From: Lama guanicoe
Lineage: Eukaryota
Reading direction: 5' to 3'
NCBI GenBank assembly: GCA_013239625.1
Contig: MU054925.1
Location: 310,001 to 374,000, forward strand
DNA length: 64,000 nt
Shown here: positions 16,601-50,383 of the stretch, one piece after another
Layout: each line of letters starts with the position of its first letter
Position numbering within the stretch: the first letter of the stretch is position 1
Translations under genes and position numbers: made by a program
Notes under the pieces: model-generated
What the model was told of the DNA's origin: nothing
The model's input: only the letters and a program-made list of their open reading frames with translations
Databases searched by the model: none

Positions 16601-19600
16601 CAGGCTCCCACTCCAGGTCTCTGCTCAGCATTTGGGCCCAAGTGATGTCCTCTCCCCACCACTTCCCTTTCCATCCAGCTGAGCTGCTCCCCTGATGTCC
16701 TCCCCTCATTTTGCCTCATCATATTGTGCTCAGCCCTCAAGGCTCCATCTCAGGCAGAATGATCTGGTTTTATTCCAGAGCCCCCACCTTTGTTCCCAGA
16801 GCTTGGCATGAGACTTCTCAGGTGGTAAATGAGGGACAGAGATTCAGTAAACCCACTGATCAGATCAAGAAACAGTCTCCCCTACATCCTGGTGCCCTAG
16901 AGCTTGCTGCTCAGCATTCCTGGCCCAAGGCTATTCTGCAGGATGAGGCTTGTACGGCTGCCTCTAACACAGACCCTGTCCCCCAACCCCCAGGCCCATA
17001 CTCTGAATGGAAGGGTCATAGACCCAAATTTCTCCCTTGAAATTCCAAGGTCCAAAGCACCCTTAGTGCCCCACTATGCTGTTTTTGTCCCACCCCATCC
17101 ACGCCTTCCTCTTGCTTAGTCCCTGCCACTCACTTCTGAGTACTCTGCCACATCTCTGTAAATATCCGTGTCTGGCACCTGGCCCAGGACAGAGTAGTGG
17201 GGCCTGTGAAGGAGAGAGTGAGTGTGAGATAAGAGTGGTGTTAGGAGAAAGAGTGACAAGGGGGTACTAATGAGCCTGGGGTCACCCTCAAGATGTAGGA
17301 AAGCTGGGGGAAGCCAGGGTGGACTCCTTCATCAGCTGGAATGAGGGTACCAAAGAGGTGACTCACATCTGTGTGCGGACCACCACGAGCAGCAGGGAGA
17401 AGACTACTGCCACTACCAGACCAATGTCCAGGTTCAGCAGGATAGTGGCTACAAAGGTCACCAGCCAGATGAGCTGAAAATAGAAGGGCAGGGGTCAACA
17501 GGGTCTAGATGGGCCACTGGGGCTGAGGGGCCTGCTCCTGCCCCCGGCACCCAGGCCTCTCACCAGATCCACTCTATTTGCCTTCCAGAGGGAGCATATG
17601 TCTCTGAACTGCATCAGCATGCCCTTCAGATTCACGATGATGACGGCTGCCAGGACTGCCTAGGGGACAGGAGCGCGGCAGCAGGGACTAAGAAGTGCCC
17701 GGAAGCCGACAACCCAGACTGCCTGGGCATCAGCCATGCTGATCCCAAGAGTCTCAGTATGACCCCAAGTGACACTGACCACCACCTGCCCCCCTCACCT
17801 AACCTGCATCTGACTCTGAAAAGTTCTCACCCATGACCCTTGACTCCAAATTTCACCCCAGAGATCGCAAGCTTGACAAACAGCATGACCCTGTATCCCT
17901 CCCCCTTACCCAGGACCCGAGTGACTGATCTGCATCCCTGGCCTGGCCAAGGCCCTCAGGCCTGGCTGGGTGGGGGTGGGGGTGCAGGCTCACCTTGGGC
18001 AGGTCTTGGAAGAGTTCACCAAGTTTGAGGATGATAATGAGGATGAAGAGGGAGGAGACGGCTCCAGCCACCTGCGGAGTGGGAGTACGCAGGGAGTGGG
18101 CCCGTGTACAGGGGAACTGGGGGAGCAGGGGGTAGGGAGAGAGAGGGAAAGGGGAGGCACAGACGCACACCCCCGCCCACACCTGAAACCCACCTGTGTG
18201 TTGCCCCCGGTGCTCTCCTGAACCAGGCTCCGGGACATAGAGCAGCTCACAGGGAAGCACTGGAAGATGCCCCCGATGAGGTTACTAAGGCCGAGGGCCA
18301 CCAGCTCCTGGAGGGGGGAGTCCAGGTGTGAGGATCTTTCACTAGCAGTGCCTGGTCACTGCGTCTAGGCCCACCTCCATCCTCACTCAGTAGTCCCCAA
18401 AGACTTGGCTGCTGTCCCCTGCTGTCCTGCTCTCCCATCCTCAGTCCCCCCTCCTGGCTGCAGCCCATCTGTTTGCTGTTTCCCTGTGTCCCTAGGCCCT
18501 GGGGTCCCTGTACACCTGCCCCCTCATGTCCCTCATCCCATCCCCCAGACCTGGTTGCTGTCCACCCGGTAGCCATGCCTCAGGGCGAAAATCTTCCCCA
18601 GCGAGATGGCAATGGCGAACCCAACCACAGCGATGGCGAAGGCATTTCCCACAAGCTTGGCAAACAGCTGGGGGCTGGGGGCCACTGGAGGCAGCATCCT
18701 GTGAGGGGCATCCGTGAGGCCACAGGAAGGTTCTGGCCCTGGCCACCCAAACCCTCCCTGACCCAACTGGGGCCAGAGCTCACCCTGCAGGGATTTTGCC
18801 CACGACATCCACCCCAAATCTGTGCTGCAGGCCCACGCCGTAGGAGATGCCCGTGGCCCCGATGAGCTTGGGGGGAGAGGACAGAGTCAGGGGAGGGAGG
18901 TGCCAGCACCATTGTTAAGGGGGATGGAGAAACCACTCTGGGGGTGAAGGAAGAAGCCTGAAGCGAAATCTTCAGAGAGGTGGGGAGAAGTCAGCAAAAG
19001 GGTGAGAGACAGACACCGCCATTTGGGGAAAGGGGAGATGCTGTAGGGGACTATGCTGTGGCCTCCCCAGTCCTCAGGAACGCTTATCACTGCCCACTCC
19101 AGCTAGTCTTTCAATACCTTGTGGATGCCCATGTGGCAGGGACATATTCTCACTTGCCCTTCCCCCGTGCCCCAACACCCTGAGTTCGAACCGTAAGCAG
19201 CTCCCCGGGGATCGGCAGGGGCAGATGTCGACGTAGTTTGTCATTCAACAGCTTCACCAGCACGAGTACCACCCCTGCCACAACTGCGGTCACCATGGTG
19301 CCCACCACGCTCTGGGGCAGCTTCCAGCAGACCTCCAGTACTGTCTGAGGGGAGACAGGGTCACAGCCAGCGCTCAAGGTCCTGGGCACACCCATCAGTT
19401 CCTCTTCCCACCCTCCAGTCCCTCCTCCTACCCTCACTCACATAGATGAGGGACAGCGGCCCAGAGCGGCTGCTCAGATAGAGGCCAAACACATACTTGA
19501 GCTGCGAGACGAAGACCTGCACGGATGCAGCTGTGGTATAGCCGCGGACAAGAGGCTCAGACAGGTAGGTGACCACAAAGCCGAAATGCACCAGGCCTAG

Positions 19601-22600
19601 CCCCACCTGTTGGGTGGATGGGGCAGTCAGAGGAGGAGAGGGTCCTAGGGGTGGCCAGAGCAGAGCCCAGGGCAGGTGGGATCAGAGGGGTATGAGTGAT
19701 GGAGGGGGAATACGGTGATGGCCCGACACTCAGGGGAACTGGCAGATGGGGTTGGGGCTGGGTTGGGCAGTCGGGGGCATGTACTCCTGACCTGGAAGAG
19801 GCCAACCAGGACACTGAGTGTGGAGGCCAGCTGCACCCGGGCAGCGTCTCTGGCCGTTACATTGACTGTGGAGTTCAAGTCCTGCAGGAAGGCCTCATCT
19901 GGGGCCAGGGATTCTGTCACACTGCCCACCATCACGGACATGATAGCAAAAGTGCCTGCAGAGACAGATCAGGGTAGGTCTCAAAGATAAAGGACACTGC
20001 CCTGCCCTGCAGCCCTGGTCTTAAGGGAGAGGCCAGGAGACATGCAATTCTAGACAAATATCCTCAGACTAGGCCATGCAAATAGAGGCAAGGCTGTCAG
20101 TCAGACATGAACCCTAAGTTCAAAGCTCTTGAGGGCAACTAGAAATGTTCAAGGACTCTTAAGTGCAGCCCCCATCATCTACCTTGACCGACCTGTGTCC
20201 ACTGGCTCAGGACCGCTCCCCTTGTAAAAGGTGGAATGGGGAAGAGAGCATGACCTGCCTCAGGCTATCAGTTCTGTTCCAAGTCTGGGCCCCTTGAGTT
20301 GCTTCACTCACCAGCTGACCCTGGCCCAGTTGCTCCTAGGACAGGGCCTCTGTGGAACCTGAATCTGTGGCTCTGTGGTCAGAGGTCCAGTGCTGCCTGG
20401 GAATGACCCTTGGGCCGGCCTCCCAGCAGCCCAGCACCAATGCCTCCCTCCCTCTTTCTGATGTTTCCTTGCCCTGCTCAGCCCTCCCTCACCCTTTCCT
20501 CTGTGGAGAATGTGAACAGCCTCCTGTAAGGCTGGGCCTGCTCCACTCACCCACGGAGATGTGCCGGGAAGTGCCGAATAGGAAATAGATAAAGACAGGG
20601 TAGAAGGAACTGTAGAGGCCAAACACAGGGGGCAGTCCAGCCAGAAGGGCGTAGGCCAGGCCTGGGGATGGAATGGTAGCAATGTAGGCTTGGAGGACAG
20701 GACCTTGAAAGGATGAGGGAATCCCAGCCCTAGGTCATGGGCCATAGTTCCAGGGGCAGGGGTCATGGCTTCAGGTTTGGAGTAGGGGGTGTTGCAGACC
20801 ACAGGGCCTCCAGGCCAGGGCCTTGAACGGTCAGGGTCACCACCCAAGGGTTAAGGGTGCAGCCTCGGGGCCAGGGGTGGCTCACCCTGTGGTAGCTGCA
20901 TAATGGCCACACTCAGGCCAGACAACAGGTCACCCAGAAGCCACTCACGCACTGGATACTGGGGTAGCCAAGCCAAAATTGGGAGGTATTGGAGCAGAAG
21001 GGCTCGGGCCCGAGCACGGGAACACCTGGAGACACAAGGGTAGGTATTAGGGACAGGTGCTACCTAAGTCCTGCAGGGTTCCCAGCCCCCACCCACCTCA
21101 CCGAAACCAGGTTCGCCATTGGCGGGTCCCAGCTGCTGAACCCCTCCTTCCCAGCTCCTCCAGCCGTTCCTGGTTCAGCAGTGGCCGCTCCACATGGTAG
21201 TCTCGCCTCCTCAGCTCCATCGCATGCGTTGTGGACAGCAGTGCCTGTGTGTCCCTTTGTCTGGGGTGGTGAGGCGAGAGACATAGTGAGGGCACTCCTG
21301 GCCCTACCTCCCCAAGGGACCAGAAAGTCACCCACCTGACTTCTCTAGGTCCCAAGATCTAGGTAGGTCCAACCCCCCCAGCTGGTTCCTGCGGGCTCCA
21401 TGCCCACGCCCAGCCAGGGGCAGTACCTGAACTTTGGCTGGTGGCAGACTCTTGATGGGCCAAAGTCCCCCACGAAGACAGCAGGATGAGCGCAACCAAA
21501 GCTTCAGCCCAGCTGCGACTGCCCAGCCCTGAGTGTTCACCAGTCTGGGTCCCAGGCTGACTGCCCCTCCTAGCCCCCTTCCCTCAGGCCCTGCTCTTCC
21601 CCAGCCAATCCCTGTCTAGTCTGAGTCCTTATCCAACTGCCCATGAGCCCAGTGCATGCTGTCTGGGAGCACATGCAAGGAAGGAATCCAGCAAACTAGG
21701 CAAGATTTTCGTCACATGAGGAGGCTCTAAGAGAAGGTAAGTTTTGGGGCTAAGATTGCCCCTGGGCCTCTGGCCCCAGGGTCCAGACTGTAGACAAGTT
21801 CAGGCCTCTTCTGGGAAAGCCAGGGGTGGCTCTCACCTGGAAGGAAAGGTTTCTGCCTGTAAAGGCAAGCTCCCATCTGAAGGGGGAACGATCTCACCTA
21901 AGGGGAAGCTCTCACCTGACAGGAAAGTTTTCACCAGTGAGGTAAGTTCTGTCCTGGGGAGAATTTCTCATCTGCCCAGTAGCTACCACCGAATAAGGGG
22001 AAAGATCTCACTTGGGAATCTAGGAGATGTGGGGAGAGGGAGTTCTTACCCGGGGGAAGCTATCCCAGGAACAGTTCTCACCTGGGAATAGGAGCTCTTA
22101 GAAGGGGAGGGCTTATCTGGGGGAAAGTTTTCACCTGCCAGGAATGTTCCGGTCTAGAGGGGATTCTCACTTAAGGGAAGCTCTGACCTGGGGGAGGCTC
22201 CCACCTATAATGGGAGAAAGCTTTCACCTGGTAGTGGATTCCAGAAAGGGGAGTCTTACCTGGAGGGAAGCTCTCCCCTGCTGGGAAAGCCTTTACCTGT
22301 CAGGAAAGTTCTGATCTGTGAGAAACTCTGACCAAGGTGGGGGATCCCACCCGAGTGGCAGGAGCTCACCTAGAAAAGGCCTCTAACCTGGATGTCCCGG
22401 TTGGAGGAAGGAGTGGAGAGGGTGCAAGGACGATCCTTGGAGACTCTGCATCGCCGTCTCACAGAGATCTTTGAGCCCCCTCGCCCCTCCTCCGTGAGTC
22501 ACTTTAGGTCTTAAAGGGCTCCCCCCCCCGACCCCCCCCCGCAGGATCCGTGCTCGGAAGGCGGGGCTGAAATCTGTGGCCCCACCCGCCTGGGAGGGCC

Positions 22601-23058
22601 CGGCAGGCTGAAAGGCGGGAGAACTAATTCCAGGACCAGTTGCATCGCTGGGTAGACTCAGGCTCCCATTATGGACACTCTTGCAGCGACCTCCCGGGCC
22701 CCAGCGCGCATTTCCTGGGCCGGGGCTCCTCTGCACGCAGCCGCCTACGGGCGGTCCCCGGCTAACCCTCGAACGGCGCTCAAGCGGCTTTCCGCACAGC
22801 CCGCAGGAGCCGAGGTCCCTCCGGCTCCCGCCCCATCCCTCGCTACAGCTGGGCAGCCGCCTGCGTAAGATCGACAAAGCGGTAAACCGACGCGCGGCAG
22901 GCGGGAAATGCCTGCTTGGGACTCGGCGGTACCCCTTCCGCGCTGACCCAAGCCGGGCGCCTGCGCGGGGGCCGAAGGGCGGCCCGCGCCTCGCAGACTG
23001 GAACATGGGGAACCCGGGCCCCGCCCTGCACTCACCCCGGCGCTTCCGATAGCCCCAT
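13612..23058 (-). CDS. SLC26A6: Solute carrier family 26 member 6 (Cl-/HCO3-/oxalate exchanger), 21 exons, 762 aa
   Basis: Exons 23036-23058, 21102-21260, 20886-21025, 20551-20661, 19792-19955, 19442-19606, 19192-19344, 18784-18866, 18551-18698, 18194-18307, 17994-18071, 17564-17659, 17367-17473, 17134-17203, 16115-16207, 15925-16029 (GC donor), 15437-15529, 14500-14679, 14242-14296, 13847-13983, 13612-13626. Sum 2289 nt in frame. SLC26 signature [28 protein letters not shown] domain, C-terminal PDZ motif VTKL. Confidence 0.97.
21261..21320 (-). ncRNA. Segment homologous to the human mirtron-like MIR6824 at the 3' end of SLC26A6 intron 1
   Basis: GGGGAGGTAGGGCCAGG…TGTCTCTCGCCTCACCACCCCAG ends at the acceptor and resembles the human hairpin as recalled. 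Function in this species unsupported. Confidence 0.3.
21820..22392. repeat. Degenerate ~18-20 nt tandem array (GGGAAGYTCTCACCTG) in SLC26A6 intron 1
   Basis: Roughly 25-30 diverged units visible by eye, e.g. 21902-21918, 22120-22137, 22174-22190, 22283-22299. Confidence 0.85.
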
Positions 23059-23420
23059 GGCTGGAGGGCAGCCCAGAGGCGGCAGCTCCTACACCTCCGG
23101 CAGGAGGCCGCTATGGCCCGAAAGGCGAGTCCGGGACCAAGGCAACGCCGGAGGCGCGCTCCCAGCGGCCAGTCCCGGGGCAGGACCGGGAAGGCGTGGG
23201 CCAGTCAGCGTGCCGGGGCGGGGCCTAAGGGACGCTCCCCGGGTGTAGCGACCTCCAAGGAGGGAGATTTAACTCCTTCCTCCCCCTGCGGCTTGGCTTG
23301 TGCTCCCCCTCGTGGCCCGCCGAGCTCTCCTCCCTGAGCCAGTTGTTACCGAAAAACTGGGACTAAGGACCCGAGCTGGCCTGGCCGTATCCGCAGCCGC
23401 AGCCGCAGGTCCCTGAGTGG
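22500..23420 (-). promoter_or_regulatory. SLC26A6 CpG-island promoter and exon 1
   Basis: CpG-dense; GC boxes (e.g. GGGGCGGGGC at 23215-23224); ATG at 23058 in CCAGCCATGG context. Confidence 0.8.
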
Positions 23421-24136
23421 GACGAGGCTGATACCAGGTCCTGGCTTCTTGCGGAGGGTCCCCGGGGGATGGGGAGCTGGATGTCTAGGGGCGTGGCTGG
23501 TAACTAGAGCATTAGATCTCTAGGGGGGGGCGGGGGAAGTATCCAGATCCTGGAGGCCGCCAACTGAGAACGCCACCCTCAGGCTTTCCCCCTGAGACCT
23601 CTCTGAGACCGAAGGGGCTCAAAGGCCTCCCTTTAACCCTGGACGCGCAGACCTGAAAGGCTGAGAGGTTCCCCTCTCCTGGACATAGCACAGGCCGGGC
23701 ATCAGGCCCGAAGCCTTCTGCCTGAGTTCCGGAGGAACGCTATGTCCCGGCAATTCCAAGTCTGAGAGGCTCCTCAGTGCTGTCAGTGGGCTGAGGGCAG
23801 TTCCTAAGGTGGGTCTGACTGCCAGAGAAAATGCCAGGTGAGGGCTGCAGGCCCTGCAGACTTAGGAAGCCATCAAGTTGTTGCCTTGACTCTCAGTACG
23901 TGTGCTCATACTTCAGGCCCAACCTCAAGGCCACTGGACAAAATTCAGGATGAAAGAGATCGGAACCTGGTCCAAATCTCCAATGAAATAAGCTAAAAAT
24001 AGCCGAATATTCTTGGGAAGGTGGGTGAGGGCAGTGCTCACATTTCTCCCAAAGGTCAGCCTGGCCTGAATCATTCATAGCCACCCTGGTACCCCACCCC
24101 CAAACAGAAAGAGGCAATAACCATTTTCTATAGAAG

Positions 24137-24142
24137 TTTATT
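24137..24142 (-). terminator. CELSR3 poly(A) signal (3'UTR ~24115-25826)
   Basis: AATAAA on the minus strand with downstream U/GU-rich sequence. Confidence 0.75.
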
Positions 24143-24624
24143 CCCAAAACAGAGCGCGGCTTCACGGAACAATTTACACAGACAGGGAAAGGAGCCACTG
24201 GGCTCGAGAGGGGACCTCTGGAGAGGGGCATCTACAGAACCTAGGACACAGCAAGGACAACCCCCTCTCCCCACGGCAGGCCCCTCAACCCTTCAACGGC
24301 TGGGGACACTCGATAAGGAGAGCTGGGGTCCTGGCTGGCGGGATTTGGCACCAGTCAGTAAAGCAGAGCTTTCAGTCTCTTTCAAAACTGCCTCCCAAGA
24401 GTGTGCATGAAGGAGTGGGGTGTCTGCACCGACCCTTCACAACCCTGCTTGGTCACTGTTCCCCATGGTAAGAGGATGCCTACTGGGCCTGCTGTTCTAC
24501 AGGGACTCAGGGCTGACCTTTGGCCTGGGAGAGTGAGGGGTTAGAAACCCCTCAAGGTGGCCAGGTTCAGGGTCCTCACAGGTGGGTCCTCCACACCCCT
24601 CTCCCACATTCTCTACCTTTCATT

Positions 24625-37800: not shown

Positions 37801-40800
37801 GCAGTGGGAGGGGGCAGCGCACCTAAGCAAACACGTACCCCTTACCTGCACCCCGCAATCCTGCCCAGAAGCCAAGAGAAACAGATGGAGGCTCATTGAG
37901 GGTGTGGTGAGGGACCCGGAGCCCCAAAGAGGTAGTGAGGGGCCCACATGGACCCCTACCCAACTCCCACTTCTTTGTAGGAACAAGGCCGACCAACTCA
38001 GGAAAAGAGGTGGCTCCAGCAGGCAGAGGACAAGCCTGCACCCCCCTCAGTGATGTACTTGCCTCCTAGTACTCACCCAGGGCCCCCCGAGGACAGGGCA
38101 CTGAGGCCAAGACACCAAACTTGGTCTGGGGCCACCACACACCAGATCTCAGGGACTTGGGGCAGGCATCATAGAGCACTAGGGAGAGAGGAGGCACTGA
38201 GCCAGGCAGCCAGGAGCTGGGGCAAGTGACAGCTACTTCCACTGTCCTGCATCCGCCAAGCAACCCCCCCACTCCCCTGCTGGCCTCACAGGAGCTGGCC
38301 CGTCAGATTCTGTGACAGGTCATCCAAATACTCAGGGTAGATATGGGAGTGCCTGGGTGTAAGTAAGGCTCTCTCAGAGAAGCTTCTTAGAGTCCCCACC
38401 CAAGGAGCCAAGCATGCCATGGCTCTGGCCCGCTTGGTGGCAGCGGGCCAGAGCCAGCTCTCTATATGTGGGGCTGGGTGGAGCCTGCTCACCCCGGCAG
38501 CCGCTGGCTGTCACCTCGGCAAAAGGACTGTCGCAGCTGTTGCACTGGCGGCCAAGGGCTCCTGGGCGACAGGGGCACTGCCCGCTGTGGGGTGCACATG
38601 AGCGCGAGGTGGAGCCCACAGGGTAGCAGTCACATGGGAGGCACGAGTCACTGCCCCGTGGTCGGTAGTGGAACTCCTGTTTGAGAATGGGTCAGGGGCC
38701 TAAGGTCAGAGGTCAGGGCTTAAGGTAGGGGGTCTCAGCTCAGGACTTGGGGAATGAGTGGAATCAAGGGCAAAGGGTCAGGAGAACAGTGCTCACAGGC
38801 CAGTAGGAAGACTGGCCTCAAATGAAACCTAAGGGAGGGGTTAGACGTCAAGGATAAAATGTGGCCATTAGGTCATGGGATAGGGGTAAAAGGTCAGGGG
38901 CTGAGTGAGGTGGCAGAGGTCAGCAAGCTTGATAAGCATCAAAAATCATGTCTAGGGAAGAGTTAAAAGGTCAGGACTCAAGAGCCAGGCACACCTTGCA
39001 GTGACACTGCCCATTGGTCTTGTTACAGTTGGGGTCAAAGCCCTTGTGAACATCGCAGTTGCAGGGTCCACACGTTGGACTCCCCCACCAGCCCCGTGGG
39101 CACTGCTGGTCCATCCTGGGGCAGACAGGCAGGTGAGATGCCTCCACGATAGTACAGTGATCCTCTCTCTCCCCACCACCAGCTCCTTCCATCATTTCGA
39201 CCCCCAGCCCCTTACCTGTGCTCACAGTGGTGCCCAAAATAGCCACCTACACAGTCACAGATATAGCCATGGGGGGCCCCGGGGAGGTGCCGGCATGACC
39301 CCTGGTTCTGACAGGGGTTCAGGAGGCAGGCGTCCACACAGCCTGGGCCATAGTAACCTGCAGGTTAGGTCAGAGAACTTAGGACACTGGCCACAGAGCA
39401 TGGGGGGAAGCAGGTACCTGTCCTTCTCAGTCCCTGCCTCCTCCATGCTCTCCAGGTTCCCCAGTCTTCACCAAGAGCCCCAGATCACCCTGCCTCCCTC
39501 CCCCAGGTCTCACCTGGCCAGCAGGTACAGGAAAAGGTCTGCCAGAGGTCTCGGCAGTCAGCGTGGGGTGGGCAGGGCCCAGAAGCACAGGCATTGGTCA
39601 CAACGCAGCCAGGTTCCACGTTCACTCGGTGACTTGGGGGAAGCAGGGCCGGAGTCCCTGAAGGTGTGGAGCCGAGCCATACCCCCTATGAACACAGCCA
39701 GCAGGGGATGAGACCCATGGCAAAGCACCTCAGCCTCAAGTCCTGCAGAGCCAGCCACTTGGTTTGAGAACCCTGATATGCAATCTCCTTACAAATCCTG
39801 GACTCTGATCCCAAATCCTCAATTCAGTGCCCCTGTGGGACACCCAATCATGCTGTCCCTGACACAAGCCTCCAGTGACTGTTGATAATCTAAGCTAGAC
39901 TCTCACCTTCAGCAGCACAGAAAGGCTTGACCCATCTCTGATGGCTCTCGGACACTGCTACCCCTGTGCCAACCCCCATGTGAATGCAGCATTTCAGGTC
40001 CCAAGGCATCTTGATCTCTGACCACCCACCCTGATGCCCCATATCATGTTCGCATGCTGACCCCCACCTGGATACAGCCAACCAGCCCCTGAGGATCCTC
40101 CTCATCACTGCTGGGGGGCAGGCCTCCCACGTGGAGTCGCTTTACCTTCAGGCCCTGCAGCTCATTCCCCACTGCCAAGGTGTCCTGGAGGAGGGGAGCA
40201 GTCAGCATTGGGGGTGTGGGGGGACTTGATGGACCCCTGCCCTGCCCCAGGGTCAGTCTTGGCCTTATTCTAGCCCTGCAGGACCACTGTCTGCCCCTCT
40301 GGGCCAGGGGACCGGTCTGGGCATGAGATGCTCCCAGGTATGGAAGACCTACTGGAGCACAGCAGATGAGTGACAGGATGGTTTCAGTCGAGAGCTGAGC
40401 TCAGACAGATCCCTCTTTCCTGGACCCAGAACAGACCCTGAAATTCCAGGATTTTGAGCTGGGGAGATCGGAGCAGAGACCTGAAGAGGTTTCCAGGATT
40501 TAGGCAAAGCACTGGCCGTAGAGATTCCCCAAGACCAGGCCAGAAATCTGCATAGCATCCCTGACATGAGGAGGGCCTGGCAGTGGACCAGCCTAGCTGG
40601 CAGCATGTGCTCAGAGCAAGGATCTGAGGAGAGGGCCGGGGGAGACATGAGACTACGTGCAGTGGAGGGAACTGAGAGGAGCTGGACTAGAGGTGGGTCA
40701 AATGAGGCGGATCTGGTCAGAAGACTGAGAATGGACTACTTCAGAGTGAGAGGTCAGACCTGAAAGAGACTAAAGTCCAATGAGACCATGAGGACATGGT

Positions 40801-43800: not shown

Positions 43801-46800
43801 CAGGCGCACAGATGCGTGCGGGCACCTACGAGAGGGACAGCGTGAGGTGGAAGCGCTGCCGCAGGCCGCGGAACATGACGAACGAACTGGGCGGGAAGGA
43901 GCGTGCTGCCACCTCGCAGCGCGGACCCTCGAAGGCGCCACCCGCTGGGCACTGGCAGCGGAAGCCGCCGTCGGGCCCATCCGCGCAGGTACCCCCGTTG
44001 CGGCAGACGCCGGGCACGCAGCGTCCGGCCTCCGTGTCCAACTCACAGTCTTCGCCTAGGGGTCAAGCCGCGGTCAGAGGTCAAGACCGCGCAGGCCAAT
44101 GCTCCAGCGGGCCCCGCCCCTCCGAAGGCCACGTGCTCCAGGCCAGCGCCAAGACCTCTGAAAAGTCGAGCTCGCTGTGGGCACGCCCCCATTCTGCCTG
44201 GCCCGCCCGGCTGCGGCCACGCCCCTCCCCGGGTCCCGCCCCGTCCACTACCACAGAGCCTCACCGCCCCGCCTGTCCAGGGCCCCGACCCCGGTTGCCT
44301 CAAGAGTGATGCTCAATCCTCGCTTGCACAATAGTTCTGTCCCACTCTCTGCCTGGGTTCACCCCGGCCTGGCGCCCGTCTCACCTGTGAAGCGCGGGCG
44401 GCAGACACAGGTGTAGCCTCCCTCGCGCCGCGCGCAGGCGCCGCCATTGCGGCATGGGTTGGAGTAGCAGAGGTCGAGCTCCGTCTCGCAGAAGTCTCCG
44501 GTGAAGCCGGGCGGGCAGCGGCAGCGCAGGCCTGCGATGGGCTGGATGGGCCTGAAAAGCGTGGAGGCCGAGGCCAGAAAGGGTGCAGACGAGTCAAAAC
44601 GCAGCACGGACACGCACTTCATGTAGTTCTCACAGGGCTCGCGCAGGCACACGTTGTCGTCAAAGGGCAGCACGTCCAAGAGTGAGCGGGCGGCAAGGGC
44701 GGCGCGGCGCACGTACAGCTGCTCCTGCAGCTCCTCAGAGCTGAACCAGGGACCCGCAGCGCCAGCCCCGGATCCCCGCGGCGCCAGCGCCGAGAAGCTC
44801 ACATTGAGCACGGTACCCCCAACGTCCGTGTCGTTCTGAATATTGAAGATGAAGACATCCTCCGCGGGTGTGGCAAGTACCGCGGCCACGCCTTCCAGGA
44901 AGTGGCCCAGCAGTGGCGATAGGAAGCGTTCCTGCCACATGTTCTCCAGGCGCACTGTCAGGCTGTTGGCCAGCAGCTCCTCCGTGATGATGACCACACG
45001 CAGCACACACTGTGCCGTCACACTATGTAGGCCATCTACAGGCAGAAGTGGGGGAAGAGGTCAGTCTGGGGTCAGGGGCTTCCCCTCCCTGGGACAAGTG
45101 AATTGAAGGATAAATAAAATGTGCCTTCTTTGGCAGTGCCTGTAATTTATACTCCAAAACTTGAGAATGAGCACTGGTAAAGTCTGTCTCTCAACCCCTG
45201 CAGCCTCCAGTAGACAGGACTGCAAGAGCCTCTCCTGCCTGCCCTCTTCTATGAGGGAGAAGTTTATGAAAGCCTGGACCACGGAGGTAGGAAAGAGGCA
45301 GGTAGACCTCTGGACATTTTCCCAAAGGGCAGGGCTTCAGGCAGCCCCTTGGATAGCAGTCAGGCCAGTGTGGGTCCACTCAATGCCTGAGCTGCCAGAG
45401 TAAGCTGCGCTTCCCAACCACTAAACTGTTGGCCTCCCTCCCCTCCACAGGTAAGTTGAGGGTCAGACTGGACCTAAAGTAACGCTTCATTTGAATAGGG
45501 GTGTGGTGTGGGCTGACTGGCCTGTGGCATTTCCTGGAACCTCCAGAGCATTACCCCAGGATCTCCAGCCTTTCAGAGGGAGATGGGCTATCCCTAGACC
45601 AGCAAGCAGACAGTTCTTTACAGTCTTTATGGGATCTGCTAATGCTCTAGAATCTTTGGGGTTCTGTGGAGACCGTCCAAGAACCTAAGAAGAAACTATA
45701 TGAACCTAACCTGTGAGGTCTATGGCAGATCCTATGGGGTGAAGGAACCCAGCACTTAAGGAATTCTTGGAAGGCTTGGAAATCTCTCTGGTTTGAAGTG
45801 CCTTGTGGAGCCCCGGAGGTCACTGGCTCATTTGATTACCCTCTGCTGCTCACCTGTAACAGTCACCAACATGGAGGCCACCAGTGGACGGTTGTTGTCT
45901 AGCTTGCGGCTGAGTCGAAGCTCCCCGCTGGTCTGGTTGACCACTAGCAGCTGCAACTCATTGCCCCGCTCAAAGGAGTAGAAGAGGTGGTCAGAGACAT
46001 CAGGATCGTATGCTGGGATGCGCCCAATAATGCCTGAGGGGAAGGTGTCTGAGCGGTTGGATACATAATTGTTGAAGAGGATCTGAAAGTTGTTGAGCAC
46101 AGGGCTGTTGTCATTCTGGTCAACCAGGCGGATGTGCACAGTGGCCCGACTGACCAGAGGGGTTGATGTGGCCTGCACCACAATCACATATTCCTGGCGA
46201 GCCTCATAGTCCAAGTCAATGAGTGCCGTCAACTCTCCAGAGAAGATGTCCATTTGGAACAGCTCAGGGATGTTCCCCTCCACGATCTGGTACATTATAT
46301 GAGCATTGGGACCTTCGTCAGGGTCTACTGCAGTGATTTGGGCCACCACTGAGCCCACAATGCTGTTCTCCTTCACTTGCACCTCAAATTCCTCAGCCGG
46401 GAAGACGGGTGCATTGTCATTAATATCCTGCACTGTCACCTGGATGCTGACTGGAGTCCGAAGCGGGGGCACGCCTCGGTCCACTGCATAGGCAGTCAGT
46501 TCATACACTGGCACTGCCTCCCGATCCAGCCGCCTCACTGTTCGGACAATGCCAGAGGTGGGCTCAATGGTAAAATCTCCATCCCCATCTTCCCCATTCT
46601 GGAAAGTATACTGGACTCGGCCATTGGCATGAGCATCCCGGTCAGTGGCTGAGATCTGCAGGACACTGGTGAAAGGTGGGGCATCCTCAGAGACCAGCCC
46701 TGTGTAATGGGAGGCCACAAACTGTGGAGCGTTATCATTCACATCATTCACCATCACCTCCACGTAAGTAGTGTCTGCCTTCTGTGGTATTCCATTGTCC

Positions 46801-49592
46801 CGAGCAGTAATAGCCAGCGTGTAGGTCACCTGGTCCTCATAGTCCAGTGGGGCCTGCAGTGTAATGGCCCCTGAGTCTGCATCAATGCGGAACTGGGGCA
46901 GGTTGTCTTCCAGGAGATAGGTGATTCGAGCATTCTCACCCACATCATCGTCAGAGGCACTGATGACCACTACAGTGCTACCCACTGGCCTATCCTCATT
47001 CACACTCACTGAGTAGTGGGCACTTTGAAAGACAGGTCGGTGAGTGTTGGCATCTGTAATGTTGATGTGCACATAGCAGTGATCATGAAGGGCACGGTCA
47101 GATGCAGTTAGCACCAGCTTGAAGTAGCGTTCCTGCTTGTAGTCCAGTGGCAGAGCCAGTGTCANNNNNNNNNNNNNNNNNNNNNNNNNNNNNNNNNNNN
47201 NNNNNNNNNNNNNNNNNNNNNNNNNNNNNNNNNNNNNNNNNNNNNNNNNNNNNNNNNNNNNNNNNNNNNNNNNNNNNNNNNNNNNNNNNNNNNNNNNNNN
47301 NNNNTTCAGCCGTAGGTGGTACTCCTTCATCGTGAACTCAGGCCGATTGTCGTTAACATCCAGCACAGTCACCGTTACGCTGGCTGAGGCTGAGAGAGGA
47401 GGTGAGCCATGGTCTCGGGCCTCCACACCAAAGAAGTAATGCTCCACAGACTCACGGTCTAGGGGACCACTCACAGAGACCCAGCCAGTGGCACTGTTTA
47501 TCACAAAGGGTGTATCAGGTGCCACACCAGTGAGGGAGTACTCCAATCTGGCATTCTCCCCATGGTCTGCATCCACTGCCTGAATGTGGATGACTGAGTG
47601 GCCCAGAGGTGCATTTTCCAGGACAGAGACCTGGAAGGGAGTGCTGACAAAGATAGGAGTATGGTCATTGATGTCCACCACCTGGATGCTGGCCAGGCCT
47701 GTGTTGTTGGACAGCGGTGGGCGGCCCGCATCCTGAGCCCGGATGCGCAAGGCATACTCTCTTTCTGCTTCAAAGTCCAGAGGTGCCACCACCTGGATCT
47801 CGCCCGTGAGGCTGTCGATGGCAAAGTGGCCGCGGCTGTTGCCACTGATGATGTTGTAATGCACCAGTCCGTTGGCGTCCTTGTCCCGGTCGGTGGCCGT
47901 GACGCGTAGCACCACCGTATGGGGGCGCACATCTTCGCGCACCTGCGCCACGTAGCGCTTCTCGCTAAACTGGGGCGCGTTGTCGTTCTCATCCAGCACA
48001 GTTATGTGCACACGCACGGTGGCTGACCGAGGCCCGGGCTCTTGGCCCTGGTCGCTGGCCTCCACTACCAGCTCGTAGTTTTCCATGTGCTCGCGGTCCA
48101 CGCGACCACTGGTGCTGATGAGACCCGAGCGCGGATCAATTTCGAAGGCGGCGGCTGCGGCCGCGCGCGCAGCCGGCGGCCCCACAAAGCGGTAACGCAG
48201 GTTGGCGTTGGGGGGCGCATCACCGTCTGTGGCACGCAACTGCAGGATAGGGTAGCCCTCCTCCACGTTCTCACGAAGCGTCTCCCGGTATTGCGCCTGC
48301 TCAAATACCGGCGCGTGGTCGTTGCGGTCGGCCACAGTAACGGCCACCATGGTGGTGGCTGAGAGGCGCGGCGAGCCGTGATCCTGTGCTGTCACGCGCA
48401 GGTAGTGGCGATCCATGCTCTCGCGGTCCAGAGCGGCCTCTGTGCGGATGAGGCCGCTCTGCGGGTCGATGCTGAACAGCTCCAGAGAGCGGCTGTTCAT
48501 GAGAGCAGCCAGGGAGTAGACTAGGCGCCCGGCCTCACCCGCGTCTGGGTCCTGAGCCACTACGCGTAGCACCGCGGTACCCGCCGCCTCATTCTCGGGC
48601 ACTAGCGCCTGGTAGTTGTACTGCGGAAACTGTGGGTGGCGGTTCGCAGCGCGACGGGGACGGACCCGGCCGGCTGGAGAAATTCTCCATACTCCTGGCG
48701 GGGCTGGGACCCCAGGGGGGCGCGGCCCGGGGCGCTGCGGAAGGAAGCGGCGGAAGAGACCATGGGAGCGCATGCGCTCGGGCGTCGGCTCGGGAGCTGT
48801 CCGAGACTCGCGGGGTGCTGAACCAGACGCGGGAGCTGTCCTCGGTGTGCGAGGTGCTGAATCCAGCTCAGAGCCAGATACCGCAACCTCGGGAGGGCAG
48901 TCCGACTGGGGGACTGTCCTCTTCGCTCGGAATGTCGCGGTTCTCTCTCTCTGACCCCTGCGCCCCGGCGCCCACAACTCCCCGCAGCAGCGCGTGATTC
49001 CCACTTTTTTGGGGTCACTTCTCCCAATATTCCTCTGGGAGGACATCGACTGGGAACCACGCAGCCGAACGAGAAGGTCCGAAGGGAAGGGAGAGCTGTT
49101 CTCAGGACCCGAGACCCCTGGGGACAGAGCCTCTGGCGACAGACTCTCTCTTCGCAAGGACCCTGTCCGCCCACAAGAGGAGACCTCTGGGCGCCAGCAT
49201 AACAGAGATCCTGGTCCTTGTCCTGTCTCCCGCCCGCGGCTGCCAAATGCCTGGACCCCGTATTCTGCTTCCAGCCTCGGCTGCTCAGAGGGCTTTCGAC
49301 CGCTTTGGGCGCTTTGCTTTTCCCTTCGGAGCCCCACGAAGGCAGGTTCCCTGAATCCCAGGCCAGGCTCTCCATCCTCTCGGACCCCAGGCGGCTCGGG
49401 ACAAAGAGCTAAGGCTCCGCCACCGATCCGCGCCCCTGGCCCAGTAGCGGCAACTACCCCCGGGTCCCAGTCTTGGCCCTTGCAGCCCCCCAGCTCCTCC
49501 TGGCTAAGAGGGAACAAAGAGAGGAGGAGCAGGAGCAGGAGTAGTGGGGTCGTCGGCCCCCTGAGACCCCACCACGGCTGCCGCCTCGCCAT
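25827..49592 (-). CDS. CELSR3: Cadherin EGF LAG seven-pass G-type receptor 3 (adhesion GPCR), 35 exons, 3313 aa
   Basis: Exons 45854-49592, 44385-45035, 43830-44055, 43452-43567, 43008-43096, 42743-42900, 42041-42204, 41659-41784, 41399-41568, 40760-40945, 40068-40184, 39514-39685, 39216-39357, 38995-39115, 38493-38676, 38077-38178, 36523-36617, 36162-36371, 35722-35917, 35314-35469, 34726-34900, 33959-34126, 33610-33736, 33318-33524, 32937-33111, 32622-32734, 32096-32175, 31444-31567, 30924-31040, 30669-30817, 30287-30396, 29820-29978, 29066-29266, 27302-28190, 25827-25854. Sum 9942 nt in frame. Signal peptide, cadherin repeats (DRE, DxND), EGF, LamG, GAIN/GPS and 7TM domains. Confidence 0.98.
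26505..26652 (-). mobile_element. tRNA-derived camelid SINE (vic-1 type) in the last CELSR3 intron
   Basis: Same head as the 12522 copy; TSD ctcactccctctg at 26490 and 26653. Confidence 0.9.
28200..29050. repeat. Degenerate G-rich repeat intron (GGGGCAG…CCCCTGGG motif) with a poly-G-flanked gap at 28809-28861
   Basis: Recurrent ggggcagtccc / gggcagaaaccc / ggaatcccctggg motifs throughout CELSR3 intron 33. Confidence 0.6.
32074..32160 (-). ncRNA. Segment homologous to human MIR4793, overlapping CELSR3 exon 27 and its donor
   Basis: TTTCTCCTCGCTGCCCGCACATCCTGCTCCACTGGGCAGAGG…CCTCTGTGCTGTGAGTTGGCTGGCT closely matches the human precursor as recalled. Conservation may simply reflect coding constraint. 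Confidence 0.3.
36860..37115. repeat. CA-rich, (TCGC)n and (TC)n simple repeats in CELSR3 intron 16
   Basis: Directly visible. Confidence 0.85.
37425..37818. repeat. Degenerate ~30-nt tandem repeat (GGGACCTCAGGCAGTGGGGAGGGGTCTGCA), ~12-13 units
   Basis: Units visible at e.g. 37551, 37616, 37733 and 37763. Confidence 0.75.
37846..37860 (-). CDS. CELSR3: CELSR3 15-nt cassette microexon (adds LRGAG)
   Basis: TGTTTCTCTTGGCTTCTGGGCAG|GATTGCGGGGTGCAG|GTAAGG. Frame-preserving, phase 1-1, strong donor. A CELSR3 isoform carrying GLRGAG is recalled. Confidence 0.8.
43430..45030. promoter_or_regulatory. Intragenic CpG island over CELSR3 exons 2-4 with SP/KLF boxes in intron 2
   Basis: CpG-dense; CCCCGCCCC, GGCACGCCCC, GGCCACGCCCC and CCCGCCCC between 44110 and 44275. 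Confidence 0.65.
45854..49592 (-). CDS. CELSR3: CELSR3 exon 1 (3739 nt): signal peptide, prodomain, furin-type site RPRR|AANR and cadherin repeats; contains a 140-nt N gap
   Basis: ORF track 45828..49808; ATG at 49592 precedes the Leu-rich signal peptide; donor ACAG|GTGAGC at 45853. Confidence 0.97.
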
Positions 49593-49979
49593 CACCCACC
49601 ACTTCCCCACACCGCCTCCACCGTCCCCCGCCCGGGTCCAGACCTTGGGCCCGCCTCGCTGCTCGGGCCCCCACCCGAACCCCTTCCGCCGCCCCAATCC
49701 CCCGCCTCTCTGCCCGTCGCTCCGCGCCGCCGCCACCCTCTGGACACCATCTACTCCGTGGCCAGAGCCCCTTTGACGTGTGGGCCCGGCTTTTGCTGCC
49801 CCCACCATAGCATCCCCGACGCTGCTGCCGCCTCCCGCCGCTCCAACATGGCTCCCGGCCGCTGTGATGGTTCATTCCACCTCCGCCCGGAAGCCCCAAA
49901 CCCAATGGTACAGGCCGTCGCGCATGGCAGCTCTATATACCGAAGTTGTTGCAGCCATCTTTATTGAGGGCAGGGTATA

Positions 49980-50071: not shown

Positions 50072-50383
50072 CCTCTAGAGCGCTGTCCCAGCTCCGTCTC
50101 CCAGCCTCGTCTCCCAGCCTTTCCTCTGCTTGTGTATCTCTTGTCCCCCTTCCTGAGCACTAGTTCCAAACCCTGCCTGTCCCGGAGTTTGGTCTGAAAA
50201 TTTGGTGCCCATGACATGCAGAGAACGCGTTCTACCTCTAGAGCGCTGTCCCAGCTCCGTCTCCCAGCCTTTCCTCTGCTTGTGTATCTCTTGTCCCCCT
50301 TCCTGAGCACTAGTTCCAAACCCTGCCTGTCCCGGAGTTTGGTCTGAAAATTTGGTGCCCATGACATGCAGAGAACGCGTTCT
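50072..50383. repeat. Perfect 149-bp tandem duplication (50072-50233, 50235-50383)
   Basis: Copies are identical except for an extra 13-bp internal repeat (CGTCTCCCAGCCT) in the first. Confidence 0.95.

Follow-up and report, generated by a model that had tools for sequence, protein, structure and literature searches.

An array of splice-site-like repeat units in intron 1 of Lama guanicoe SLC26A6 and its possible part in isoform choice

The SLC26A6 locus and its intron-1 array

We analysed a 64-kb window (64,000 nucleotides) of Lama guanicoe contig MU054925.1, focusing on intron 1 of SLC26A6, which contains a tandem array of short units that each resemble an acceptor and a donor splice site placed back to back. 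Coordinates are positions in this window, and SLC26A6 features lie on its minus (transcribed) strand. SLC26A6 is a widely expressed chloride/bicarbonate/oxalate exchanger with long and short N-terminal forms, of 758 and 735 residues in mouse (PMC7859274). No description of how the long or the short form is chosen was found in the searchable literature. Intron 1 is 1775 nt long, from the end of exon 1 at 23036 to the start of exon 2 at 21260, with the array inside it. The first 21 residues of the joined exon 1 and exon 2 translation are those of the named alpaca protein P0008. The elements of the region are as follows, a vertical bar marking the splice junction.

23036..23186, minus: SLC26A6 exon 1; long-isoform ATG at 23058; donor GGG|GTGAGT, phase 2; covered by RNA contigs from 23186 (set X1) and 23152 (set X12)
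22861..23035, minus: 175-nt sub-intron (GT..AG) between the exon-1 donor and a cryptic acceptor; the sole joint in the RNA contigs
22712..22860, minus: 149-nt conserved cassette, labelled here exon 1b; its donor place reads GAA|ATGCGC, with no GT in this genome
22400..22492, minus: two more putative acceptor places from peptide mapping, at ~22492 (rorqual models) and ~22400 (mustelid models), neither with an AG in this genome
21822..22391, minus: array of 28 degenerate, quasi-palindromic units of 18–19 nt, consensus YCAG|GTGAGAGCTTYCCY, from profile tiling and a repeat search
21102..21260, minus: SLC26A6 exon 2; its acceptor is the one taken by the unit 8, 9 and 11 donors in predicted isoforms; short-isoform ATG at 21220

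The label exon 1b is our own; a mouse 'exon 1b' is said to make the short form.

Units of the array are mostly spaced 17–21 nt apart in the profile tiling. GT is retained in 18 of the 28 and AG in 20, and the 12 with a complete YAG|GT have the first G of their GT at 21836, 21897, 21915, 22081, 22134, 22187, 22204, 22227, 22259, 22296, 22369 and 22387. The initial annotation had described a degenerate ~19-nt repeat in one orientation with at least 11 YAG|GT units. This is borne out and the repeat is larger than claimed: all 11 units exist on the minus strand, with a twelfth at 22204, and both example units, as well as the MELRRRDY start in exon 2, were correct, the position numbers alone lying 4 bases below the G of each GT. 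Twelve YAG|GT sites in one 600-nt span compare with maxima elsewhere in the 64 kb of 6 on the minus strand and 8 on the plus strand; on the plus strand throughout intron 1 there are only 4. This high density is a property of one repeated unit, and enrichment by itself is no evidence of function. Eight plus-strand YAG|GT sites occur in each of 39094–39693 and 20765–21364, antisense to the genes there.

The units depart from their consensus at 147 of 504 places and are thus ~71% like it. The array is too degenerate for Tandem Repeats Finder (TRF), a check proposed at the outset, which left it undetected at a minimum score of 30; a second repeat search detects it. A DNA search of the genome returned only the array itself, as did a looser two-unit pattern, the strict version having been so tight that it missed even the array. 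The array is single-copy on these searches, and a dispersed repeat is ruled out at the sensitivity of the DNA search, where own-genome matches were the array only. A coding role in this genome is rejected, since there are stops in all six frames. The RNA has no stable fold (z=-1.57, with 6 of 100 shuffles equally good), and Rfam gave no match at E<=1 across 21000–24500.

As donors, the units are comparable with those of the gene itself. The median U1 duplex energy is -8.55 kcal/mol for the 18 GT units and -8.9 kcal/mol for the gene's 12 real donors (p=0.73). Eight GT units reach the real-donor median, a level met by 3.4% of all 3439 GTs on the minus strand of the window. On the acceptor side the units are weak, with a pyrimidine fraction of 0.53 in the 12 AG|GT units versus 0.76 in 12 acceptors (p=7e-5), and nine of the 12 have another AG at most 19 nt away. 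Units 1, 9 and 24 have an AG-free upstream run of 27–48 nt. The best-formed dual site is unit 24.

21910..21948, minus: unit 24, with 33 nt free of AG upstream, CAG|GTGAGA and a U1 duplex of -11.1; no use seen

Elsewhere in SLC26A6, the exon end at 19191 (minus) has a very weak donor, ACG|GTTCGA, with a U1 duplex of -2.8 kcal/mol.

The GC-rich half of intron 1 (22383–23204, minus) holds a stop-free frame of 273 codons. The exon-1 ATG enters this frame through the 175-nt splice and reads to a stop in unit 1, giving 166 residues. This exon 1–22860 form is rejected as a conserved protein, its matches being confined to the first 49 residues and one read-through open reading frame of 147 residues.

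Splicing across intron 1 in gene models and RNA

The frame opening at 22860, used as the starting query, led to SLC26A6 isoforms of dolphins. The collection built around these holds 225 proteins. Of them, 206 are anchored in exon 2 and show 45 different N-termini; the 19 unanchored ones were left out (5 read-through open reading frames and 14 unrelated proteins). An array piece ending at unit 2, 8, 9 or 11 and followed by exon 2 is present in 18 of the 206, from 10 named species in four lineages. The array sites concerned are these.

22364..22372, minus: unit 2 donor TAG|GTGAGC; models of two rorqual species (P0012, P0017, P0161), into an alternative acceptor inside exon 2
22260..22296, minus: 37-nt microexon from the unit 6 AG to the unit 8 GT, itself starting with GT, the layout of a recursive-splicing exon (RS-exon); dolphin models
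22222..22230, minus: unit 9 donor CAG|GTGAAA; grey seal and harbour seal models (P0037, P0136, P0140)
22182..22190, minus: unit 11 donor CAG|GTCAGA; river otter and ferret models (P0029, P0100, P0104)

In nine proteins of four dolphin species, GEAFPGRGELPSR stands between exon 1b and exon 2 and matches the 37 nt of the window, the order of the isoform being exon 1, 49 residues matching 22860–22712, GEAFPGRGELPSR and exon 2. At the unit 2 place, the read-through frame P0233 has CAG|GT. The cassette at 22712–22860 is present in predicted isoforms of dolphins, humpback whale, jackal and pinnipeds, with a similar one in colugo, and is joined straight to exon 2 in the jackal and pinniped models. 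Units 12–28 show no use among the predicted isoforms, where in-frame forms alone are visible, and no array piece occurs among the horse, pig, deer or few primate proteins listed. A jump from unit 1 to unit 7 in mustelids is indistinguishable from a deletion in the DNA and was left out of the splicing tally. According to these gene models, the array would be used by the spliceosome in several lineages.

These models also bear on the ladder of alternative first-exon donors splicing to exon 2 that the initial annotation proposed. Splicing from array donors to exon 2 is supported by the 18 proteins; the description as alternative first exons needs correcting, since in the dolphin, mustelid and minke-whale models the donors belong to internal cassettes that follow exon 1. 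In some other models, whose 5' ends are unseen, translation begins at an ATG within the intron. Thirty-three of the 206 anchored proteins start at the exon-2 ATG, and several of these have at least four accessions for one protein, which is consistent with many 5' variants. Three SLC26A6-like proteins of California sea lion (P0123, P0129 and P0130) bear CELSR3 isoform names, possibly as a result of read-through between the two neighbouring genes or of their annotations having been merged.

RNA was compared for 4 of 24 runs, over 21180–23250 only. The informative ones are two contig sets, X1, recorded as RNA, and X12, taken to be RNA by guess; the raw-read runs X21 and X24 had 0 reads on the stretch and hence gave no test. 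The source organism of X1 and X12 is a close relative, ~97–98% identical to the window. The sole joint in both sets runs from the exon-1 donor to the AG at 22861, with spliced versus unspliced depths of 15.6 versus 43.1 in X1 and 6.5 versus 19.5 in X12. In both sets an unbranched contig of 1924 nt continues from 22861 across the entire array into exon 2. The contig goes on for another 219 letters past the compared region, as many as the 78 left of exon 2, the 140 of exon 3 and a single shared G together; this fit of length (78+140+1=219) would mean that intron 2 was removed while intron 1 was kept. An assembled RNA path retains most of intron 1. Retention of the intron therefore exists, which does not imply that the array is its cause. 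A retained SLC26A6 intron, not necessarily intron 1, has also been reported in human astrocytes (PMC8034657).

Relative and window are alike at 22711, the exon-1b donor place, with no variant, and the exon-1b acceptor is still spliced in the RNA of the relative although the donor GT is missing in this lineage. Insertions in the relative at 22525–22534, inside the stop-free frame, total 6 nt. In the array the relative has one extra whole unit, and the consensus is restored at three core positions.

Age of the array and constraint on its units

Read-through open reading frames from other mammals are colinear with the array, unit by unit. P0233 is gapless through units 1–8 and ends exactly at unit 8, the donor of the dolphin models; the microexon of the dolphins is thus a piece of the array, and a close genome contains the units that precede it. 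P0232 ends exactly at unit 9, the donor of the seal models. P0234 is colinear over units 3–25 and includes the extra unit, so that the lineage of the window has lost that unit. These alignments show the array to be old and colinear across mammalian orders; human and mouse are not among the genomes seen with it.

For the comparison of constraint, only bases fixed by the residue were scored, in three of the five read-through frames, chosen as separate lineages. The donor window of the unit (positions -3 to +6) differs from the Lama guanicoe sequence at 20/198 of these bases; the corresponding figures are 45/168 for the remainder of the unit (p=3e-5) and 32/157 beyond the units (p=0.01). Among the 18 nine-column windows that can be drawn, none has changed less. 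Inside the donor window, changes are fewer at columns +4/+5 (3/47) and -1/+1/+2 (6/74) than at -3/-2 (8/42). The column profile is donor-like rather than E-box-like. The contrast is also present among purines alone, with 9/143 changed in the donor window versus 13/38 in the rest of the unit and 15/89 outside; pyrimidines show little contrast (11/55 versus 32/130). The three lineage comparisons share the window's own branch, and runs of C align less surely. When positions are collapsed over lineages, the donor window still differs from the rest of the unit (19/137 versus 40/126; p=6e-4).

Whether the AG|GT core stands out from the rest of the unit, as the initial annotation required, depends on where one looks. 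Between species the donor window is the better kept, as above. Within the array the core is no better kept (21/112 departures versus 32/168 in six other well-defined columns, p=1), and its difference from all other columns (126/392, p=0.007) comes from a profile that was seeded on that core.

Competing readings and significance

On balance, and with modest confidence, we favour the view that the array is a conserved cluster of competing splice sites, likely favouring cassette inclusion or intron-1 retention and so cutting the long isoform. U1 would bind the units, and array donors would compete with the exon-1 donor, pairing with cryptic acceptors in intron 1 or in the array to form cassettes; donors left unpaired would hold intron 1 unspliced. 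The usual outcome would be a stop in the exon-1 frame, after which the RNA would yield the short protein by a start at the exon-2 ATG, be degraded by nonsense-mediated decay or be kept in the nucleus. In this genome, the long frame is kept by only 4 of 174 single-cassette paths, and of the 18 paths that begin at 22860, 17 run into a stop in unit 1. Because exon 1b has lost its own GT in this lineage, the nearest strong donors are those of the array, 470–1020 nt further on, an arrangement that would favour retention. Suppression of premature polyadenylation, which had been suggested for a dense set of U1 sites, lacks a canonical signal as its target, there being no AATAAA or ATTAAA on the transcribed strand of intron 1.

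Several observations weigh against this view. At +6, where T would suit U1 pairing, 25 of the 28 units have A. The isoforms come from computational gene prediction, in which in-frame forms alone can appear. Junctions at array sites, which the initial annotation called for, are absent from the two contig sets of the relative, as is the plain exon 1–exon 2 junction, contigs being prone to drop rare forms. The RNA comparison covers 21180–23250 only, so that retention of intron 1 stands by itself, and the end of the contig at the exon-3 donor points to a spliced and an unspliced branch at that place as well. Departures of the units from consensus are largely transitions (101 of 147), as in neutral decay, and the lineage of the window has lost three core positions besides one whole unit. 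Over its full length the array is not better conserved than the flanking sequence (65/366 versus 32/157, p=0.54), nor has it fewer substitutions against the relative (10/570) than the rest of the intron (p=0.49). Collapsed over lineages, the donor window differs from sequence outside the units (28/119) at p=0.053; the carnivore frame alone is not significant (8/55 versus 9/40); and the donor window is kept alike in GT units (14/144) and non-GT units (6/54).

A bolder version is that selection has kept the dual-site repeat as a splicing rheostat for some 80 million years or more, a decoy ladder that sets the balance of unspliced, destroyed and short products versus the long one, with rungs differing by lineage. 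This is possible, and we put it forward tentatively.

The nearest described systems are minisatellites that reiterate a donor, known from F7 IVS7 (a 37-bp variable-number tandem repeat, VNTR), 6-16 intron 2, CBS IVS13, LAMIN B2 and PDGF (PMC1557585), and from the ABCA7 intron-18 VNTR (PMC5954066). The SLC26A6 array shares with the F7, 6-16, CBS and ABCA7 repeats a tandem unit in sense orientation that repeats a 5' splice site (28 units, 18 with GT), possibly a preference for upstream copies, only units 2–11 of 28 being seen in use among the in-frame forms, and extra donors that lead to out-of-frame forms. It differs in position, since those repeats span an authentic exon–intron border, whereas the array starts at 22391, ~650 nt inside the intron from the exon-1 donor at 23035, and borders only cryptic cassettes known from other species' models. 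The described minisatellites are young or polymorphic; the SLC26A6 units are ~71% like their consensus and colinear across mammalian orders. Moreover, the SLC26A6 units carry an AG directly before the GT, with both sides used, and units 8, 9 and 11 are among those in use, in contrast to the first two or three copies only. The array is a variant of the donor minisatellite and not a plain member of the class, as it does not begin at an exon–intron border and is set apart by its age and by the use of both AG and GT.

Decoy exons favouring the retention of introns are described for SF3B1 intron 4, OGT, ARGLU1 and DDX39B (Parra et al. 2018; PMC6097662). As in those cases, an intron of more than 1 kb (here 1775 nt) is retained in RNA, the array lying in an unbranched contig in both sets, and conserved cryptic cassettes offer competing 5' and 3' sites with rare junctions, known here from gene models of 10 species instead of read counts. 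The described decoys are single, highly conserved cassettes, whereas the SLC26A6 element is a repeat whose modest conservation is confined to half of the unit; their role was demonstrated with minigenes and U2AF binding, and the SLC26A6 case is known from sequence and RNA contigs. A 5' splice-site motif can also act as a nuclear-retention signal, unused donor motifs being able to hold RNA in the nucleus (PMC4380460), and in SLC26A6 transcripts with intron 1 still in place 18 GT donor motifs would go unused. The literature search, which did not extend to subscription papers or to every supplement file, gave no account of the array itself, in agreement with the first claim to that effect. The supplement files searched for PMC8034657, PMC4281565, PMC6097662 and PMC6224609 had no entry for SLC26A6.

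It is unlikely, in our estimate, that the array is a neutral relic, an old minisatellite whose unit resembles a splice junction by chance and whose splicing is noise picked up by gene predictors. Donor-bearing minisatellites do arise often: three tandem YAG|GTRAG units occur at ~16 other places in the genome, with 51 exact matches versus 10 for the reversed pattern, at periods of 17–22 and of younger age. The flank-like divergence of the whole array, its transition-dominated decay, the unit loss and core decay of this lineage, and the use of different units in each lineage would all suit such a relic. It would not be expected to have a donor window kept ~2.5-fold better than the rest of the unit, on purines alone too, or units colinear across distant mammals. 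Nor does the array resemble its younger counterparts, being too degenerate for TRF when all seven of the other donor repeats taken for that comparison were detected, at 71–98%.

Quite unlikely is a cluster of protein-binding sites in the DNA near the CpG-island promoter, either E-boxes, of ZEB type (CAGGTG) or other, or targets of a dimeric factor that would recognise the quasi-palindrome; splicing at the units would then be a by-product. Such a cluster would explain why conservation is independent of an intact GT and why the +6 A (0/15 changed) and +9 T, which U1 does not need, are strongly kept, the +6 A not even pairing with U1. The array lies 650–1200 nt from the exon-1 donor. The E2-boxes and kappaB-like sites that the initial annotation saw in the units are present in excess, at 7 CAGGTR versus 1.3 expected and 10 GGGAA versus 2.0, with four relaxed kappaB sites. 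CAGGTR is nevertheless intact in only 7 of the 28 units, and strict kappaB sites number two. The C and A of the E-box are the least kept part of the donor window (8/42), and there is no conservation of the palindrome in its pyrimidine half (45/168). A literature search found no paper joining SLC26A6, ZEB1 and chromatin immunoprecipitation sequencing.

A recursive-splicing ladder, in which exon 1 or 1b is joined to a unit AG and the regenerated donor then to exon 2, is improbable: the dolphin microexon, which would be a rare included RS-exon, does begin with GT and end at a competing downstream donor, in the layout of PMC6224609 with a partial donor directly after the AG and a small exon upon inclusion, and units 1, 9 and 24 have their 27–48 nt free of AG, but the acceptors are weak and most have another AG 10–19 nt upstream, the intron is merely 1775 nt long, there are 28 tandem sites instead of one, 8 of the 20 AG units have no GT, and the X1 and X12 contigs contain no part-spliced intermediate.

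Other repeats and frames were noted along the way. The arrays elsewhere in the genome (G000; L003–L022) are on contigs C1600, C2563, C3031, C3191 (two places), C3616, C4216 (32.2 Mb), C5471, C5537, C5673, C6107, C6652, C7267, C7688, C8810 and C8898; the two on C3191 look alike and are 57 kb apart. In the window, 50099–50383 is a near-perfect 150-bp duplication (1.9 copies, 98%). An open frame of 1347 codons occupies 45828–49871 (minus) and is, we presume from the gene order, probably the large first exon of CELSR3.

The array is a concrete candidate for a control point in intron 1 for the choice between long and short SLC26A6 and, if it promotes retention, would be a target for splice-switching oligonucleotides. 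It is also a natural system in which to compare how AG|GT sites serve as decoys and how they serve in recursive splicing. The donor minisatellites already described are regarded as accidents of recent origin whose first copy prevails. If the reading of competing splice sites is true, an old repeat whose donor half is selectively kept, and of which different lineages use different copies, would show that repeats of this kind can be turned into regulators of splicing.

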